NCBI GenBank assembly: GCA_965246985.1
Contig: OZ251998.1
Span: 6,505,657 to 6,569,656, forward strand
Origin: Candidatus Poribacteria bacterium
GTDB taxonomy: Bacteria > Poribacteria > WGA-4E > WGA-3G
Direction: 5' to 3'
DNA length: 64,000 bases
Shown here: positions 1-11,074 of the stretch, one piece after another
Position numbering within the stretch: position 1 is the stretch's first letter
Layout of the letters: every line of letters begins with the position of its first letter
Notes under the pieces: generated by a model
Seen by the model: only the letters and a program-made list of their open reading frames with translations
The model's database searches: none
What the model was told of the DNA's origin: nothing
Made by a program: the position numbers and the translations under genes

Positions 1-711
1 TTGTGGATTCTGTCTATGAAGTTCTCGTCTGCGTATAGGGATAGGCGATATACAGAATATATCCGTGTTATCTACAATAGGATTACCCCCGATAGTGTGA
101 TATGCCAAACACCAAGAATCTACACAATGTGCCTCAAAGGTTTCTGATAACTTGTTAGACGATTTCTTGAGACCGAGCCTATCACGTATCTCTTTGGTTT
201 CCCAACCTTGAAGGGTTAGCAACTTCCACCGCTTTTCTATTTCTGTGTAGAACCACTGCTTACCGACTTCCAATGGACTAAAGGATTTATTCCACTTCTT
301 AGCATGCTGTAGCGTCCGTGCCTTCATGTCTTCTACACAAACGTATGTGATTGGGTAAAGTTTGGACAACCAATCAAGCACCCGTAGTTTCCAATCCCAT
401 CTTGCACGTGTGCCTGCGGGTATCCGCTCTCTGTTGGCAAGGCGATTAGTGCGGTTCTTGCGATTTGGACACTTCCGTGAACGCCTACCTCTACGCAACT
501 CACGACGCTTTTGAACTTTTTTGCCCACATTGCTATGAGCATCTGCTTGAACATTGAAGTAGGTATGTGTTTCCGATTTGACGGTAAAGCCTTCTTTCTG
601 ACTACCGGGGTCAACACCTACACAAATCTCTTGTGTATCTCTATCAGACGGTTCTTTGTTGAGACGGATACAATATATGCCGTTATCCCAATAATACCCA
701 ATTAACCCCAT
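1..711 (-). CDS. IscB/IsrB-like (OMEGA-family) RuvC-fold nuclease, C-terminally truncated by the window edge; lacks an HNH insert
   Basis: Open minus-strand frame of 237 codons from ATG at 711 to the window start with no stop; it is absent from the ORF track because it has no stop in the window. My translation is MGLIGYYWDNGIYCIRLNKEPSDRDTQEICVGVDPGSQKEGFTV...KKVQKRRELRRGRRSRKCPNRKNRTNRLANRERIPAGTRARWDWKLRVLDWLSKLYPITYVCVEDMKA...ETFEAHCVDSWCLAYH.... It shows a RuvC-I-like motif (VGVDPGS), an Arg-rich bridge-helix-like segment, a RuvC-II-like motif (VCVED) and a RuvC-III-like motif (H-x2-D-S-x2-LA). About 65 aa lie between motifs II and III, with no Cys/His HNH pattern. In-frame stops lie just upstream of the ATG, so a PLMP-type N-terminal domain is either absent or lost. 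Confidence 0.4.
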   Translation of the reverse strand, partial: MGLIGYYWDNGIYCIRLNKEPSDRDTQEICVGVDPGSQKEGFTVKSETHTYFNVQADAHSNVGKKVQKRRELRRGRRSRKCPNRKNRTNRLANRERIPAGTRARWDWKLRVLDWLSKLYPITYVCVEDMKARTLQHAKKWNKSFSPLEVGKQWFYTEIEKRWKLLTLQGWETKEIRDRLGLKKSSNKLSETFEAHCVDSWCLAYHTIGGNPIVDNTDIFCISPIPIRRRELHRQNPQ

Positions 712-1098
712 TTGTAGCGCGAGGTCCCTGTGCCTCGCAATGCTGACTTGATCAAAAGACTTCTAATCACGTTAATTGGGTATAAGGTGTCGCTGCGCTA
801 CGTTGGACGAGTTTCCTCGCACGTGCAGCATGCATTGGCATAAGGTGTTGTCCATCTTTTGTCTTTACAGGTACAAACATAAGTTTGTATTCTCCTTTTC
901 AGGGTTTATGTTTCCCCATCCAGATCACAGTGTCCAAGAAGAATCAGACTTGGGGAGCATCCGAAACATTGCTCTAACTGCCACGCTAGGACACCGCGAT
1001 ATATTACTGTAGAAAACTGTTTAACTTGTGGAGTGGACGCTGGCTACGCTTCGCACAAGCCTCGCCTTTTAAGGCGAGGTAGTTGACTTTTAGTACAT

Positions 1099-1548
1099 TC
1101 ATTTCTGGTTATCTCCTGTCTGTAGCCAATTATAGGGGTTTTCGACTCGGACGTGCAATTTGGAACTGAGCCTTTTTGCCCTTCTGAGGAGCCGGTCATC
1201 TGTTGTGAGAAAGACATCCGCATTGCCTCTTTCTGCACACGCAAGGTGCAAAGCATCTAATCGCTTGAACCCTAACTTTTCAAGATCTCTACCCCTTGCT
1301 CTTTCTATCTCACGAATCGAAACGTTTATGTATGCATCGGCCATCTGAGATTTTATTTGGATGCGTTGACTCACATCTCGGTTATTGTCAACTTCAAGCG
1401 TTAGAACTCCGCTAACAATCCAGTGCCAATCGCCTGTACTGAAATTTTTGAGGATTATTTCAATAGCTTCCGTTTCTCGACGAATCCTTGCTGGTGTCTG
1501 ATCATTAAATGGTCGACTCAAACAACACGTATCAAGATAAATTTTCAA
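1099..1548 (-). CDS. PIN-domain protein (VapC-like ribonuclease); no antitoxin partner detected
   Basis: 149 aa with the N-terminal MKIYLDTCCL motif and conserved acidic residues typical of the PIN fold. It lies directly downstream of thiG on the same strand. The 60-nt gap before it holds no recognisable antitoxin ORF. Confidence 0.55.
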   Translation of the reverse strand: MKIYLDTCCLSRPFNDQTPARIRRETEAIEIILKNFSTGDWHWIVSGVLTLEVDNNRDVSQRIQIKSQMADAYINVSIREIERARGRDLEKLGFKRLDALHLACAERGNADVFLTTDDRLLRRAKRLSSKLHVRVENPYNWLQTGDNQK

Positions 1549-1608: not shown

Positions 1609-2379
1609 TTATTCAATCATTCCCGTTTGTGGGCTTGAGGCAGTCGCGTAGAGTTTCCGAGGGATACGTCCTGCTAAAAATGCTGCTCTACCTGCTTCAA
1701 CCGCTTTCTTCATCGCCTCCGCCATCAGTACGGGACGATGTGCTTTCGCGACTGCTGTGTTGAGCAGTACACCGTCACACCCTAACTCCATCGCTATCGC
1801 TGCATCCGATGCTGTCCCGACACCGGCATCCACAATGAGCGGCACTTGTACGAGATCTCGGATAATCTGGATGTTATACGGATTACGGATCCCCATCCCT
1901 GAGCCAATCGGCGCACCCAGTGGCATCACCGCTGCACAACCGATGTTTTCCAATTTCTTACAAGTAATCGGATCATCATTACAATATGGAAGCACAGTGA
2001 AACCGTCTTTGACCAATGTTTCCGCTGCACTGAGCAGCTGCTCCACATCCGGGAATAGCGTCTGTTCATCCCCAATAACTTCGAGTTTGATAAGCGATGT
2101 CTCAAGTGCTTCGCGCGCAAGGTTCGCAGTTAGGATCGCGTCCTTCGCTGTGAAACAGCCAGCGGTATTCGGGAGGATCGTCATACCACGTTCACGTAGG
2201 AGCGCGAACAGGTTTTCACCGGAGGTGTCCGTAAATTTCACACGGCGCATCGACACCGTCGCGATTTCGGCACCACTCGCGGCGATAGCCTCCGTCATTA
2301 TATGGAAACTCGGGTAACCTGCTGTTCCAATAAGTAGCCTTGATGTATAAGTTTGGTCTGCGATTTTGAATTCTTGCAT
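1609..2379 (-). CDS. thiG: thiazole synthase ThiG
   Basis: 256 aa, the ThiG length. Shows the characteristic LIGTAGY..., KLEVIGD and [11 protein letters not shown]...[10 protein letters not shown] motifs. Confidence 0.9.
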
Positions 2380-2432: not shown

Positions 2433-2738
2433 CTATTTTTTGTAGAGTGGTACGCCGATACGTTCAATCTGTTCAACCATTTCAGGGTTACGGATGTTCT
2501 CGAAGATAGACAAATCGATGGTATAAGGTAGCAGCTGATCATCCAGATCATTCGCGATTCGGGAGAGGATTGTGTGTGTCAGCGCATCCCCACCGCGAAG
2601 CGTTAGGTCAATATCAGATCCGTTTTTATAGTCACCTCTGGCGCGCGAACCGTACAACACCACCTCTTCTACCTGCGGATATTGAACGAAAACATCGCGG
2701 ATTTTTTGGAGCGTCTGGTTAGATAAGCCGTATTTCAT
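2433..2738 (-). CDS. minimal nucleotidyltransferase (MNT/MntA-like antitoxin)
   Basis: 101 aa with the GSRARGDY...SDIDL nucleotidyltransferase motif (GS-x9-D-x-D). Its start lies 2 nt after the stop of the upstream HEPN-family gene. Confidence 0.75.
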   Translation of the reverse strand: MKYGLSNQTLQKIRDVFVQYPQVEEVVLYGSRARGDYKNGSDIDLTLRGGDALTHTILSRIANDLDDQLLPYTIDLSIFENIRNPEMVEQIERIGVPLYKK

Positions 2739-2740
2739 TT

Positions 2741-3190
2741 TTAAAGGTTTCCTGCCTCTTTCAACTGTTCCAAGTGAACGAGGAACCTTTCAAATTCAGG
2801 AAAATAAGTAGTGCAGATAGCAGTGACAACTTGGGCTGCGGTTTCCTCATCGTAAGTATGAGAGGTTAAGTTGCGTTTGTCAACCATGTCCATCCAAGCT
2901 TCGCCGTTTTCAATCAGACCGTTCCTAAAAGCCTCTCGGGTTGTGTCGCGCGAACCGTACAGATTCACTGTACCTTGCGCTTCAAGGAAGTTCTTCAGCG
3001 TCTTCCAAGCAAGTTCATGCGTGTATTCAAAGCCTTGTATCAATCCTTGTGCTTCTAAGTCTGAGAGTTCCCGTTGTTCCGCAAGCTTGACTGCTGCCTT
3101 TAATCGAGCGAAAGCCCTCTCAAAACTATTCGCGCGTTGAATCCAACGAATCTCTTGGCTTTTCATGGTGTTCTGCCTACAGTTATCCAC
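2741..3190 (-). CDS. HEPN-superfamily 'nucleotidyltransferase substrate-binding' protein (HI0074/HepT-like toxin partner of MNT)
   Basis: 149 aa. Contains an R-x4-H motif (RNLTSH), the HEPN Rx4-6H signature. Forms a two-gene module with the MNT gene. A likely true start is the internal ATG at 3166 (MKSQEIRW...). Confidence 0.7.
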   Translation of the reverse strand: MDNCRQNTMKSQEIRWIQRANSFERAFARLKAAVKLAEQRELSDLEAQGLIQGFEYTHELAWKTLKNFLEAQGTVNLYGSRDTTREAFRNGLIENGEAWMDMVDKRNLTSHTYDEETAAQVVTAICTTYFPEFERFLVHLEQLKEAGNL

Positions 3191-3383: not shown

Positions 3384-3590
3384 CTAACCCCCTTGGACGG
3401 GACGGATAATCTCTACATCACTGTTTTCGCGAAGGGGCGTTCCGCGCCACTCCGTTTTCGGGATAACCTCCCGGTCCACAGCCACAGCGATGCCTGCCTG
3501 CATCGGATTCAGTTCTAAAGCGATGAGCAGTTCGTAAATGTTTAAATTCGGATGAACTGTTTTTTCTTCGCCATTCACGCGTATTTTCAT
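3384..3590 (-). CDS. thiS: sulfur-carrier protein ThiS
   Basis: Internal ATG at 3590 gives MKIRVNGEEK...IIRPVQGG, a 68-aa ubiquitin-like protein with a C-terminal GG. The ORF-track ORF is over-extended at its N-terminus. Confidence 0.8.
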   Translation of the reverse strand: MKIRVNGEEKTVHPNLNIYELLIALELNPMQAGIAVAVDREVIPKTEWRGTPLRENSDVEIIRPVQGG

Positions 3591-3629
3591 TGTTTTCCAA
3601 GAGTGGTTACGGCACACGGCGTGTGCCTA

Positions 3630-4769
3630 CTACCTTAAAAACCTGTCTAACTGGAAGGGAGCGATTGTCTCTGAAGTTTCACCTGTCAAAATTAGTTTGG
3701 CTATCTCGTAAGCCGTAACAGGCGTAAGTAGAATACCGTTGCGATAATGCCCCGTTGCATATATCAGATTTTCAACAGGTGTTTTGCCGAGTATAGGTGC
3801 GTTGTCTCTGCTACCGGGACGTAAACCCGTCCATGTCTCCAGAATCGGCAGTTCGTAAACACCCGGCACCGCTTCCCACGCCCCACGAAGGAGTTCAAAC
3901 ATACCGCCAGCGGTTAGACGCATGTCAAATCCCATCTCCTCGCTCGTGGCACCAACGATAAGTCTGCCATCCGCTCTCGGCACCAGATATACCGATGTCG
4001 GATACCTTGCTCTGACGGTGCGGATGACGTTTTTGACCGTAATCCCGGCTTCCATCTGCAATGCCAACATTTGCCCTTTCACGGGACGCACTGGCGGACG
4101 GATGGCAGCTGGAAGTCCGTCAATCTGTGCCGATTCGCATCCGGCTGACAGCACAATAACATCAGCGTTTTGTGTTCCGCTGTCTTGTGTCTGGACACCG
4201 GTCGCAACACCGTTTTCAATATGGATATTTTCGGCCGCGTTGTTTTCATGCAACACACCGCCGCATCTCTGGTAAGCACGTTGCAATGCTGTTACCATCA
4301 GCCGATTGTCAACCTGATGGTCGGTCGCACAGCGGATGGCTGCAGTTATGCGAGGCGAAAGGACCGGTTCAATTTCACGCGCTTCTCGTCCGGTCAACCA
4401 CTGGACATCTAATCCTAAATCTTGTTGTGCAGTGTAGAGGTGCCGAAGTTGATGTGTATCATCAGTCTCTAATCCAACGATGAGCGTGCCTTCCACCCGA
4501 TAGCCGACAGACATCTGCGCGTCTGCCTCTAATTCGACGACCCATTGCGAATAACGTTCTAAGCTTTGGCAGCCGAGTTTAAGGAGTTCTGGTTCTTCGC
4601 TATGTGCTTCAGCGAGTGGCGCGAGCATACCAGCGGCTGCCCAAGAAGCAGCACGCCCGGCTTCAGCGCGATCATAAATGGTGACGGCAGCACCCGCTTT
4701 CGCAAGCTGCCACCCGACACCGAGTCCAATCACACCACCCCCGATGATAAGAATCTTTTTATTTGCCAT
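3630..4769 (-). CDS. thiO: glycine oxidase ThiO (FAD-dependent)
   Basis: Start chosen at MANKKILIIGGGVIGLGVGWQLA (ATG at 4769), a GxGxxG FAD-binding motif. Adjacent to thiS. The ORF-track ORF is extended to 4841. Confidence 0.85.
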   Translation of the reverse strand: MANKKILIIGGGVIGLGVGWQLAKAGAAVTIYDRAEAGRAASWAAAGMLAPLAEAHSEEPELLKLGCQSLERYSQWVVELEADAQMSVGYRVEGTLIVGLETDDTHQLRHLYTAQQDLGLDVQWLTGREAREIEPVLSPRITAAIRCATDHQVDNRLMVTALQRAYQRCGGVLHENNAAENIHIENGVATGVQTQDSGTQNADVIVLSAGCESAQIDGLPAAIRPPVRPVKGQMLALQMEAGITVKNVIRTVRARYPTSVYLVPRADGRLIVGATSEEMGFDMRLTAGGMFELLRGAWEAVPGVYELPILETWTGLRPGSRDNAPILGKTPVENLIYATGHYRNGILLTPVTAYEIAKLILTGETSETIAPFQLDRFLR

Positions 4770-4813
4770 TTTTTTATTATGGCGTTTTCGCTCCCGATCA
4801 ATGTAAGCTAAAA

Positions 4814-5800
4814 CTATTCTCCTAAAACATTCACGAAACAATCTTTTGCTTCAACTGCTTTAGAGATCAACCCTTTTTGATATGCGAATTTTGCGAACGC
4901 AGCCCACTTTTCTTCAGATTGCACCTGCGTTGTTGCGAATAGATCCAACGTATCCCGAAAAGCGAGTTTTTCTAATTCTTTGCTGGCATCCGGATTTGCC
5001 TTAAAAAAGAGTTGTAGCGCATCATCTGGTTTTTCTTTCGTGAACTGAATTGCTTCCTGAATCGCCATCATCAGTTTTTTAGCAGTTTCTGGATGTTCTT
5101 CCAAATAAGCGTCATTAGTGATGATGACTAATTCATAATAGTCCGGAATACCGTGCTTTTCAAGTGCCAAATAATCGGCTTCTGCTCCTTCAAGCTTCAA
5201 CAAGTTAATCTCATAATTCCGAAAGGGCCCGATAACTGCGTCAATTTGACCGCTTAGGAGAGGTGCCAAAATATTCGTGCCTACGTTTATCAATTCATAG
5301 TCATCTTCCGTTAATCCGGCGTTCGCAGCGATTGCATTAAATAGAAGCACATCCAAAGGTGCAACTGTATATCCGATTTTCTTCCCTTTGAAATCTGCTG
5401 GTGTTTTAATGCCTGTTTTCTTCAAGAAGCTAATCGTGTTGAGCGGATGTTCCACGAGTAAACCGATGGATTTGACCGGCAAAGTTTCTTCACTTGCCCG
5501 CGCAATTGTCACACTCTGTTGATAACTAACAGCAAACGGGTATTTCCCTGCCGCTATCAGTTTGAGCGGGGCATCCGGGTCGCCACCCCAACGTAATTCG
5601 ACTTCTAATCCGTGTTTGGCAAAAATCTTGTGCTCCTGTGCAACATAAAGTGGTGCATGATCTATGTTGGGAAACCAATCGAGAAGCAACGTGACCTTCT
5701 CCATTTCAGATTTTTCATGGCTGTCCGCGTTGCTGTTAATGTGTCCTGTTAAGAGTATACCACAACCGATAAGAAACATTAAGCAAATTGCTGTCTTCAT
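4814..5800 (-). CDS. NMT1/THI5-like (ThiY-type) substrate-binding protein of an ABC transporter for a thiamine pyrimidine precursor
   Basis: 328 aa with an N-terminal signal/lipoprotein-like region (LIGCGILL). The family assignment (NMT1/THI5-like, ThiY-type) rests on the signal-peptide/size profile and its place in a riboswitch-controlled operon with a permease and thiO. Confidence 0.7.
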   Translation of the reverse strand: MKTAICLMFLIGCGILLTGHINSNADSHEKSEMEKVTLLLDWFPNIDHAPLYVAQEHKIFAKHGLEVELRWGGDPDAPLKLIAAGKYPFAVSYQQSVTIARASEETLPVKSIGLLVEHPLNTISFLKKTGIKTPADFKGKKIGYTVAPLDVLLFNAIAANAGLTEDDYELINVGTNILAPLLSGQIDAVIGPFRNYEINLLKLEGAEADYLALEKHGIPDYYELVIITNDAYLEEHPETAKKLMMAIQEAIQFTKEKPDDALQLFFKANPDASKELEKLAFRDTLDLFATTQVQSEEKWAAFAKFAYQKGLISKAVEAKDCFVNVLGE

Positions 5801-5842: not shown

Positions 5843-6685
5843 CTACCGAATATCTAATGTGTTGTGCTGATGTCGCCACGGCATTGCGTAACGCTCCAAC
5901 AGCGTCATCAATCCAAAGAGACTTAAACCTAAAAGTGTTAAACAGAAAATGGCGGCAAATACGAGTGAAATCTGCATCCGTCCATTCGCATACAACATCA
6001 GGAAGCCGAGTCCTGCCTCTGCTCCCACCCATTCACCGATGACCGCGCCAATCGTAGAAATTGATATACCGATCTTCGCGCCGGAAAAAATAAACGGCAA
6101 TGCCGACGGGATACGCACTTTCCAAAGTATCTGCCACCGAGTCGCCCGCAAAATCCGAAACAGGTTTACCGTGTCCGGATCGGTGGACTTCAAACCGTCT
6201 AATGTGTTCAGCACGATCGCAAAAAACACAATCAGTGCCGCCATGACTACTTTTGAGGCAATCCCGAATCCGAACCACAGTACTAACAATGGCGCGATAG
6301 CAAACACCGGCACCGTTTGTGAACCGATAACATACGGATAGAAGGCTTTCTCCAGCATCGGAAACTCAAACATCAGCACGGCTAACGGAATGCCGATGCT
6401 AATCGCGAGGACAAACCCAAGGAGCATCTCTTCCAAGGTTACAAGCGTATGTCTCAGTAATTGCGAATGTTCCACAAATAGCGTCACCACAATTTTCGAG
6501 GGTGCTGGCAAAATGTAGCGCGGTATCTCGAAAAAATGCACGGCTCCTTCCCATACCCCTAATACTGCGAATAGGATAGCCACAGGGACCGCGAATTTGC
6601 TGAACATTATGTATCCACTCCTTAACGCAAAAAAGCCGTCTTCCGTTTTGGGTATATGCCAAAAGGAAGCGGCTCCGCGTCTCAT
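5843..6685 (-). CDS. ABC transporter permease (NitT/TauT family, ThiX-like)
   Basis: Polytopic membrane protein with a binding-protein-dependent transport signature region. Probable true start is the internal Met at about 6607 (MFSKFAVPVAILF...). The ATPase gene is not in the operon. Confidence 0.7.
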   Translation of the reverse strand: MRRGAASFWHIPKTEDGFFALRSGYIMFSKFAVPVAILFAVLGVWEGAVHFFEIPRYILPAPSKIVVTLFVEHSQLLRHTLVTLEEMLLGFVLAISIGIPLAVLMFEFPMLEKAFYPYVIGSQTVPVFAIAPLLVLWFGFGIASKVVMAALIVFFAIVLNTLDGLKSTDPDTVNLFRILRATRWQILWKVRIPSALPFIFSGAKIGISISTIGAVIGEWVGAEAGLGFLMLYANGRMQISLVFAAIFCLTLLGLSLFGLMTLLERYAMPWRHQHNTLDIR

Positions 6686-6739: not shown

Positions 6740-6860
6740 CGCTTAAGAAGGGATGAAATTTGCCCTTCTTCCTATTTCCCTACGCTGGCATGACCCAGAT
6801 CAGGTTCAATGGGTGTTTTCTCAGCTCTTAAGCAGATAAGAGCACCCCATGATGTTGTTC
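6740..6860 (-). promoter_or_regulatory. TPP (thi-box) riboswitch controlling the thiXY-thiOS-thiG operon
   Basis: The minus strand reads ...GGGGUGCU-[P3 hairpin gcucuua/uaagagc]-CUGAGA-aaACACCC-auuGAACCUGAUCUGGGUCAUGCCAGCGUAGGGAA.... This carries all the conserved thi-box blocks. It sits 60-170 nt upstream of the first transporter gene, followed by an expression-platform hairpin (gaagaaggg...cccttcttaa). Confidence 0.8.
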
Positions 6861-9593: not shown

Positions 9594-10332
9594 AAAGTGT
9601 ATGGGAACCAAAACCGACAAAGCGGTTTTCACTGTAACAGGTACAACGCTTTTAACGTTCTTAATAGCAAGCCGTATTGGAACTATTTGGATTCTCTATC
9701 CGAATGTGTTGCTTGCGGTCTCTTTATTGTTTTACTGTATCTCACAAACTGATGAAGATGTGTCACTGCTCTCCAGCAGTTCTATTTTTGGGCTCGCAAC
9801 GGTGTTAACCTACGCACCGATGGACTGGTTATTTTCTCGGAAGGCGCGCCTCATCTTCTATCTGCGTTCAGATTTTTTGGCGAATACAACGACACCGATT
9901 GCGATAATTTTAAACTGGGTGGTGTTCGTGACCCTTGCAGCCTACTGTTATCAAAGGCTCACAGCGATTTGCCAAACCCGTTTCGCATCGGATTCTGAAA
10001 ATCGGAGGGGCGGTTTGATAGGAACTGCGATGTTGGCGGCGGGTGTCACGGGCATCGGTGCTGCGGTTGGAAGTATCGTAATTTACGCGCTTGGTGCATC
10101 ACATCTATGGCTATGGAATGCAACGCAGATAGATCGGATACCACAGATTGCATCCGTACCAATTTTTGTGCCCCTCGCTTTTCTATTCACGTTTCTGTTG
10201 TGTCCGTACTTCTTTGGCGTCGCTAATCGTTTTCTGAGGGCGCAACACGCAGGTGTGGCAGGGATACGGTGTGGCATCTTTATGGGGGCACTGCAGTTTC
10301 TCAGTTTTCTGCTGTTTTACGCATGGAAATAG
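9556..10332 (+). CDS. hypothetical polytopic membrane protein
   Basis: Multiple hydrophobic segments and no recognisable family motif. The start may be the internal Met at about 9601. Confidence 0.35.
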   Translation: MREKIRNQERFAEKCMGTKTDKAVFTVTGTTLLTFLIASRIGTIWILYPNVLLAVSLLFYCISQTDEDVSLLSSSSIFGLATVLTYAPMDWLFSRKARLIFYLRSDFLANTTTPIAIILNWVVFVTLAAYCYQRLTAICQTRFASDSENRRGGLIGTAMLAAGVTGIGAAVGSIVIYALGASHLWLWNATQIDRIPQIASVPIFVPLAFLFTFLLCPYFFGVANRFLRAQHAGVAGIRCGIFMGALQFLSFLLFYAWK

Positions 10333-10943: not shown

Positions 10944-11074
10944 CGCGGTGCTATCCGAGTCGCATCGCCTAACCTATCTCATACACCTAATTGTACGGAA
11001 GCTGCCGGGCATTATCCATACAAAGCGGTTATGAAACAACTGATAGGGTTAATAATTTTTCGGGAGGTTTAACC

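Follow-up and report, generated by a model that had tools for sequence, protein, structure and literature searches.

A non-autonomous IsrB element of Candidatus Poribacteria, carrying its candidate omega-RNA and very probably broken by a recent MITE insertion

The IsrB OMEGA nickase has reportedly been the subject of studies by Altae-Tran in 2021 and Hirano in 2022. The family is known, with structure and mechanism solved for one ortholog, DtIsrB from Desulfovirgula thermocuniculi (PDB 8DMB), which works with an NTGA TAM and a 20-nt guide; in its structure, the terminal hairpin and the Shine-Dalgarno site are both touched by the PLMP domain, and deletion of this domain abolishes nicking (PMC9581776). 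For IscB elements, Meers et al. described a guide that lies outside the transposon end and transcription that must enter the element from outside; the genes upstream of these elements tend to be co-oriented with them, iscB adjoins tnpA in just ~1.5% of cases, and HEARO matches of at least 15 bits were accepted where position supports them (bioRxiv 10.1101/2023.03.14.532601).

Here we describe a locus that falls within this set of systems, located at the left edge of a 64,000-nt stretch of Candidatus Poribacteria DNA (the whole of which we refer to as the window). A first-pass annotation of the window had pointed out a 237-codon minus-strand ORF with the order RuvC-I, Arg-rich helix, RuvC-II, RuvC-III and with no HNH domain, had placed it in the IscB/IsrB lineage as IsrB-like, and had suggested a compact or degenerate nuclease or, instead, a different RuvC-fold protein. 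The ORF was found as described, with VGVDPGS (RuvC-I) followed by RRELRRGRRSRK (Arg-rich), CVEDM (RuvC-II) and HCVDS (RuvC-III). As set out below, we consider it very probable that the left window edge holds one non-autonomous IS200/IS605-type OMEGA element, made up of an IsrB gene and an omega-RNA, and that a MITE recently disrupted this copy, leaving a protein that is most likely non-functional. The element type, an IsrB OMEGA element, is already known; the Poribacteria clade and the disruption by a MITE are what set this case apart. Features and their coordinates are collected in Table 1.

Table 1. Features of the IsrB element at the left edge of the window and of its relatives; positions are those of the window
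Feature	Position	Strand	Description
237-codon ORF	711-1	minus	ATG at 711; runs off the left window edge
isrB 5' segment	783..880	minus	start codon (880-878), codons 1-32 and two bases; PLMP domain (MFVPVKTKDGQHLMPMHAARARKLVQRSAATPY)
isrB 3' segment	1..691	minus	codons 34-263 of a ~340-codon gene; from Pfam and from the DtIsrB and P0001 alignments
RuvC-I D	612-610	minus	in isrB 3' segment
RuvC-II E	333-331	minus	in isrB 3' segment
RuvC-III H and D	129-127 and 120-118	minus	in isrB 3' segment
Insertion	692..782	minus	91 nt: 88-nt MITE plus duplicated TTA
MITE	782-695	minus	12-bp terminal inverted repeats TACCCAATTAAC / GTTAATTGGGTA
TTA target duplication	694-692; other copy 785-783	minus	flanks the MITE
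Omega-RNA scaffold, putative (HEARO-like)	887..1087	minus	from HEARO match, 70-copy boundary and covariation; equals the 'RE' transposon end in the IS200/IS605 convention as applied to IscB elements
First scaffold stem-loop	1060..1079	minus	CCUCGCC-UUAAAA-GGCGAGG; covariation; twin at the other element end
Shine-Dalgarno GGAG	895-892	minus	inside the last small scaffold hairpin
Putative guide	1088..1107	minus	5'-CAGAAAUGAAUGUACUAAAA-3'; in host DNA, immediately beyond the transposon end; overlaps the PIN stop codon (1101-1099)
PIN-domain gene	1099..1548	minus	co-oriented; Pfam PIN, E=2.5e-6; ends 11 nt before the scaffold
Element-end hairpin pattern			CCCCAAGC-TAAA-GCATGGGG
Predicted MITE-free isrB junction pattern			ACACCTTATTGGGATAAC; linked flank CAGAAATGAATGTACTAAAAGTCAAC

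By sequence, the 237-codon ORF belongs to an IsrB, that is, a RuvC nuclease without an HNH domain. Pfam returned RRXRR (PF14239, E=3.6e-22) and no other credible family, HNH included, while the top PDB sequence match was DtIsrB (8dmb, E=1.3e-21), covering residues 11-237 of the ORF. The RuvC motifs and the Arg-rich stretch fall on the corresponding segments of DtIsrB. Between E153 and H221 there are 67 residues, and over this stretch the alignment with DtIsrB is collinear, with gaps of just 1-3 residues. The remaining PDB sequence matches were likewise to IsrB or IscB, those to IscB being much weaker (E of 1e-4 to 1e-8). A protein database search yielded 2,470 homologs, the closest of which are ~340 aa long and, where they carry a source name, come from Candidatus Poribacteria; residues D60, E153, H221 and D224 are invariant among 47 homologs. 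P0001, an intact homolog of 340 aa that is 98% identical to the window protein, matches DtIsrB over residues 3-281 at E=7.4e-35. The proposed IscB/IsrB lineage, and within it the likeness to IsrB, was therefore upheld both for the ORF and for a full-length homolog.

The Poribacteria proteins share with DtIsrB the succession of PLMP, RuvC-I, bridge helix, RuvC-II, a short linker in place of HNH, RuvC-III and phosphate-lock/WED, and are of similar size (340 aa versus ~350 aa). They differ from it in that identity is ~27-30% and in that the last ~60 residues of P0001 (the TI-domain region) have no sequence alignment to DtIsrB; in addition, the host is a Poribacteria, the family is highly multi-copy and the window copy is interrupted by a MITE. 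They share a split RuvC and a PLMP/RRXRR N-terminus with the IscB/HEARO systems (OgeuIscB, GstIscB), as well as an omega-RNA encoded upstream of the gene. Unlike IscB, they have no HNH, so that a nick would be expected instead of a double-strand break.

According to the first-pass annotation, the protein has no PLMP domain and positions 712-1098 are non-coding. Neither statement holds. Codons for the PLMP domain (MFVPVKTKDGQHLMPMHAARARKLVQR..) are present at 880-783, in a frame that differs from that of the rest of isrB: residues 1-33 of P0001 match window positions 880-782 at 94% identity (tblastn), and the segment ..GQHLMPMHAARARKL.. aligns with the PLMP domain of DtIsrB. The domain is apparently missing from the ORF because a MITE insertion of 91 nt in all cuts its codons off. 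Aligning the locus with L001 and L002, both of them intact, showed that neither has these 91 bases between codons 32 and 34. In the window, the insertion shifts the frame that begins at 880, which stops after ..PYTQLT, four codons into the MITE; the 237-codon ORF, for its part, takes its ATG at 711 and its first six codons (MGLIGY) from the MITE and the target duplication. When the 91 nt were removed in silico, 263 uninterrupted codons were obtained. The insertion appears to be recent, because the gene restored in this way differs from L001 at 4 of 789 nucleotides and from P0001 at 3 residues. Of the stretch that had been taken as non-coding, ~1087-881 alone is so, 880-783 being part of isrB and 782-695 the MITE.

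These results bear directly on the idea of a naturally compact, PLMP-less IsrB-like nuclease that starts at 711 and is preceded by ~390 nt of RNA. We regard such a protein as very improbable, even though its 237 codons are open from 711 with intact catalytic motifs and the MITE happens to provide an in-frame ATG. Besides the presence of the PLMP codons themselves, each of the seven full-length homologs that were looked at opens with MFVPVKTKDGQxLMP.. (PLMP domain), and PLMP likewise comes first in the consensus built from 47 homologs; what intervenes in the window is a multi-copy MITE with its target duplication; the ATG at 711 has no Shine-Dalgarno-like sequence before it; and a PLMP-deleted DtIsrB is inactive (PMC9581776). 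In place of a compact nuclease, the locus appears to hold a normal IsrB of the 340-aa type cut by a MITE.

The 88-nt insert is a MITE, because it is multi-copy, is bounded by inverted repeats and, as a family, is flanked by TNA duplications. Across 1.55 Mb of Poribacteria DNA that had been fetched for other reasons, it has 44 matches at E<=1e-6 and 52 at E<=1e-2, and a matching 3-bp TNA duplication flanks 22 of the 26 full-length copies (TAA in 11, TTA in 9). A blastn search found no second copy within the window. Some of the MITE copies lie in tandem or are inserted side by side. Target duplications of 3 bp with the sequence TNA are typical of IS5-group or PIF/Harbinger-type transposases, and from the type of duplication we tentatively assign the MITE to the TNA-duplicating class, whose members it resembles in its length, its 12-bp terminal inverted repeats, its TTA/TAA duplications and its many copies.

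Directly 5' of isrB, position and covariation support a candidate omega-RNA. Here the first-pass annotation was right about the location, immediately upstream of the gene, and wrong about the extent, which is ~200 nt (1087 to ~887) and not ~390 nt. It was also borne out in part on its supposition of a HEARO-type RNA (RF02033): a permissive Rfam scan over positions 1-1700 gave HEARO as the single match, on the minus strand from 1087 to 887 and spanning model positions 1-211 of 211, but at 21.5 bits (E=0.077) this match lies below the Rfam gathering score of 83. Two divergent copies, L008 (26.2 bits) and L019 (24.6 bits), have a full-length HEARO match at the homologous place, also below 83. By the Rfam threshold the scaffold falls outside the HEARO family, to whose seed it is distantly related. 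Because the score is so far under that threshold, we base the omega-RNA assignment on position and covariation.

With regard to position, an alignment of 70 distinct Poribacteria copies revealed that similarity starts exactly at the base that matches window position 1087 (GTCA..), which is also HEARO model position 1. The flanks 5' of this base are unrelated to one another and merely A-rich, and no motif common to them was found. From the scaffold the conserved block runs on to the ATG at 880, and a block of ~207 nt homologous to 1087-881 precedes the start codon in all 80 of the 80 best loci, at 70-98% identity. The anticipated further copies with conserved RNA and ORF boundaries thus exist, in the form of these 70 aligned copies with their sharp start at 1087. 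The Poribacteria scaffold has in common with IscB omega-RNA the HEARO 5' consensus (GUCAACUACC.. hairpin ..UAAA..), its HEARO scores being just 21-26 bits, and is like that of DtIsrB in lying directly upstream of the gene and in having a Shine-Dalgarno sequence in its 3' hairpin, although it is shorter (~200 nt versus 262 nt).

With regard to structure, RNAalifold predicted 29 pairs, 17 of them compensatory. An extended structure comprises 49 pairs in 10 helices, within which 92.1% of cells are paired, as against 31-46% when the partners are slid by 1-3 columns, and both sides change in 32 of the pairs. The covariation score is 0.339, compared with no more than 0.083 when the partners are slid, and none of 500 shuffles reached the observed values. 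The stem at 1079-1060 (helix 3) has changes on both sides in six of its seven pairs. This is the hairpin CCTCGCC-TTAAAA-GGCGAGG that had been picked out beforehand; it is indeed present, as the first omega-RNA stem, but ends at 1079 instead of 1082. Many G-U and U-G pairs, such as 162-235, 198-214 and 201-211, are tolerated, and solely on the strand that carries the scaffold.

Ten covarying helices across the whole 200 nt, together with this strand-specific tolerance of wobble pairs, sit poorly with a reading of the conserved block as mere transposon-end DNA (a TnpA-type binding site) plus a 5' UTR, with no functional guide RNA. We give this reading very little credence: in its favour are the sub-threshold HEARO score and the first hairpin, whose counterpart at the far end recalls IS200/IS605 ends recognised as single-stranded DNA, but divergent copies too match HEARO over the full model and the same arrangement has been established experimentally for both IsrB and IscB (PMC9581776; bioRxiv 10.1101/2023.03.14.532601). 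A role at the transposon end and a role as guide RNA are not mutually exclusive.

Structural modelling of the protein was of limited use. The AlphaFold model of P0001, built from an alignment of 47 close homologs that was too shallow, has a mean pLDDT of 51 and a pTM of 0.30, with a pLDDT of ~85 in the C-terminal ~60 residues. When this poor model was used in Foldseek, 8dmb came first (E=6e-11, TM 0.26, 27% identity) and IscBs next, an order in line with the sequence matches; given such a model, with TM ~0.26, matches at E<=0.001 were nevertheless to IsrB or IscB without exception. A RuvC-fold protein from outside OMEGA, whether a RuvC resolvase, YqgF or an IS110 DEDD transposase, has a negligible probability in our estimate, as the one thing in its favour is a generic order of RNase H-like motifs, whereas RRXRR alone exceeds the Pfam threshold and the PDB matches and the Foldseek matches at E<=0.001 all lead to IsrB or IscB. 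Such a family is ruled out for the window ORF by the Pfam and PDB sequence matches. The outcome that the first-pass annotation had itself set against an IsrB, namely a profile match to a RuvC family outside OMEGA with no RNA upstream, did not occur, since the Pfam profile found was RRXRR.

A genome scan detected 183 related loci, and the best 80 of the 183 all lie in Poribacteria MAGs; one chromosome, OZ244616.1, carries at least 17 copies. The Poribacteria IsrBs form a large, multi-copy clade with a scaffold shorter than that of DtIsrB. No further isrB copy was found in the window (tblastn with P0001; blastn with positions 1-1200), and no paper linking Poribacteria with IscB or IsrB was found in the searchable library.

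An intact related unit measures ~1.26 kb. In intact relatives, homology stops ~33 nt past the stop codon at a conserved ..(T)TGATGA, beyond which the DNA is unrelated. We infer that the terminal ATGA is the TAM of the Poribacteria elements, because it is conserved at the end of related copies and fits the NTGA of DtIsrB. In the transposon's own orientation, this terminal ATGA resembles the TTCAT motif common to GstTnpA and GstIscB. The window stops short of the ~77 last isrB codons of this copy, and likewise of its far transposon end and its TAM; the missing codons are predicted to end in ..NFNYRSG... An RLCQ motif near residue 310 of P0001 may correspond to R323 and Q326, the residues that read the TAM.

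End features of the IS200/IS605 type were tested on related intact copies, the window copy showing the omega-RNA end alone. In these relatives a subterminal hairpin sits at each end, terminal inverted repeats are lacking, a short conserved motif adjoins one end, and no target duplication was seen in the flanks. The isrB stop codon falls within the far-end hairpin, which is of the same type as the first omega-RNA stem, with a C-rich arm, a loop of TAAA and a G-rich arm. The two end hairpins of the same element are alike at 16.0 of 20 positions, versus 14.2 of 20 across elements, a value that none of 2000 permutations reached, among copies that are not phylogenetically independent. With same-strand subterminal hairpins at both ends, sharp boundaries and no internal transposase, the elements resemble non-autonomous IS200/IS605 elements (PATE-like). 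A tblastn search with an approximate IS608 TnpA query found no tnpA beside the 80 loci. In the 1.55 Mb, it showed one Y1_Tnp gene (L049, Pfam E=9e-28), which lies in a copy-rich genome, adjoins a tandem-repeat array and is not linked to an element. As in IscB elements, tnpA is seldom adjacent and the guide would lie outside the transposon end. A blastn comparison of the PIN/thiG flank with the 1.55 Mb of related loci, made in search of an empty site, returned one irrelevant 67-nt match.

Upstream of the PIN-domain gene that precedes the scaffold come thiG, thiS, thiO and genes for transporters, which follow a same-strand TPP riboswitch. This riboswitch was the only Rfam match in the whole window at gathering thresholds, and no tRNAs were found there. 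A promoter and terminator scan of positions 600-1700 gave nothing above chance, including no minus-strand site between the PIN gene and the scaffold. The sole terminator-like match was the hairpin of the omega-RNA as it reads on the opposite strand. Read-through transcription of guide and scaffold probably originates from the PIN gene.

Taken on the minus strand, the proposed layout would run from host DNA, up to 1088 and including a guide of ~20 nt, through the scaffold (1087 to ~887) to isrB, from 880. The 20 nt before 1087 are predicted to act as the guide, a length borrowed from DtIsrB (PMC9581776) and a placement outside the boundary that follows Meers et al. (bioRxiv 10.1101/2023.03.14.532601). 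By analogy with DtIsrB and GstIscB, transcription entering from the upstream PIN and thi genes would generate an RNA consisting of guide plus scaffold. An intact IsrB would bind this RNA, whose guide would match the flank of the insertion site, and the complex may then recognise the rejoined, empty site left by excision beside an NTGA-type motif (here ATGA). There, the RuvC site would nick the non-target strand, an event that may favour re-copying of the element.

In the window copy, the 88-nt MITE and the TTA placed between codons 32 and 34 detach PLMP and shift the frame. Most likely no working protein is left in this copy, because PLMP deletion abolishes nicking in DtIsrB, the frame from 880 stops in the MITE and no ribosome-binding site precedes 711; for the truncated protein, this loss of function is extrapolated from a different ortholog, DtIsrB. 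Its omega-RNA is intact in sequence and could be usable at most in trans. A more far-reaching reading, which we hold to be unlikely, combines two claims. In it, the Poribacteria IsrBs would constitute a distinct and strongly expanded clade (>2,400 distinct proteins, at least 17 copies per genome, an unusually short omega-RNA of ~200 nt and no linked transposase), and the omega-RNA of the broken copy would still be made by read-through from the thi operon (TPP riboswitch) and the PIN gene and be used in trans by sister IsrBs. If this were true, the 'dead' element could go on shielding the site where it is inserted, and the supply of guide RNA would be tied to thiamine status.

On the reading that we prefer, an IsrB OMEGA element recently broken by a MITE, what looked like a PLMP-less mini-IsrB is corrected to a normal IsrB with a MITE-disrupted gene, and the 237-codon ORF is not worth pursuing as a miniature editor. 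The locus itself is a case of one mobile element inactivating another and opens no new biological question. At the level of the family, the analysis defines a large and well-sampled IsrB clade of sponge symbionts, with exact boundaries, a putative omega-RNA of ~200 nt backed by covariation and a predicted ATGA TAM, the intact members of which, such as P0001 and P0002, are candidate compact nickases.

In related Poribacteria loci (for example L022, positions 11010-11060), the terminal hairpin of the transposon, ..CCCCAACC-TAAA-GGATGGGG.., holds the isrB stop codon TAA within its loop, so that the end of the coding sequence overlaps the transposon-end structure. Close to the C-terminus of P0001, the intact 340-aa IsrB homologue of the window copy, we noted an R-L-C-Q motif (residues ~309-312, in a region beyond the window) with the same i, i+3 spacing as R323 and Q326, the TAM-reading residues of the structurally solved relative DtIsrB. 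The Q position is occupied by R or T in some homologues, and the motif is a candidate lead on TAM specificity.

The insertion site of the IsrB element lies 11 nt past the stop codon of a solitary PIN-domain gene, for which no obvious antitoxin partner ORF was found between the PIN gene and thiG. Upstream lies a minus-strand run of thiamine genes, which starts with a TPP riboswitch scoring above the gathering score and, in its reading direction, leads to the PIN gene and then the omega-RNA; the DAO-family oxidase within this run is probably ThiO. Between thiS and thiG, the run also contains a nucleotidyltransferase and an NTase_sub_bind protein, which together (2433-3190) look like an MNT/HEPN-type toxin-antitoxin pair.

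Features flanking the IsrB element in the window and features noted at related Poribacteria loci
Feature	Location	Strand	Support or context
PIN-domain gene, solitary	window 1099-1548	-	Pfam E=2.5e-6
ThiG	window 1609-2379	-	in run behind TPP riboswitch
Nucleotidyltransferase (Polbeta/NTP_transf_2)	window 2433-2738	-	
NTase_sub_bind protein	window 2741-3190	-	
ThiS	window 3384-3617	-	in run behind TPP riboswitch
DAO-family oxidase	window 3630-4841	-	in run behind TPP riboswitch
NMT1/THI5-like binding protein	window 4814-5800	-	in run behind TPP riboswitch
ABC permease	window 5843-6685	-	in run behind TPP riboswitch
TPP riboswitch	window 6760-6859	-	RF00059, 67.7 bits
MITE head-to-tail runs	L046 2047-2405; L058 17769-18199; L052 873-1052		
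Y1_Tnp (IS200-like) gene, 156 aa, and adjoining tandem repeats	L049 1698-3506 and 3438-3908	-	Pfam E=9e-28

At three of the related loci the 88-nt MITE was also found head-to-tail, each run consisting of 2-4 copies with 3-nt spacers between neighbours, an arrangement which suggests repeated insertion at a TNA site made beside an earlier copy. At L049, a locus on the Poribacteria chromosome OZ244616.1, the Y1_Tnp gene adjoins ~1.7 kb of 51-nt tandem repeats and resembles a RAYT/REP pair in layout; an isrB copy lies ~6 kb away, and the two are unlinked.

In a few of the related copies the omega-RNA region contains additional inserted sequence, with ~45 nt added ahead of the Shine-Dalgarno site in L018 (about 9940-10000) and ~11 nt in the upstream region of L044, and several related isrB ORFs are truncated to 177-201 codons. 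Copy decay is therefore common in the Poribacteria IsrB family.
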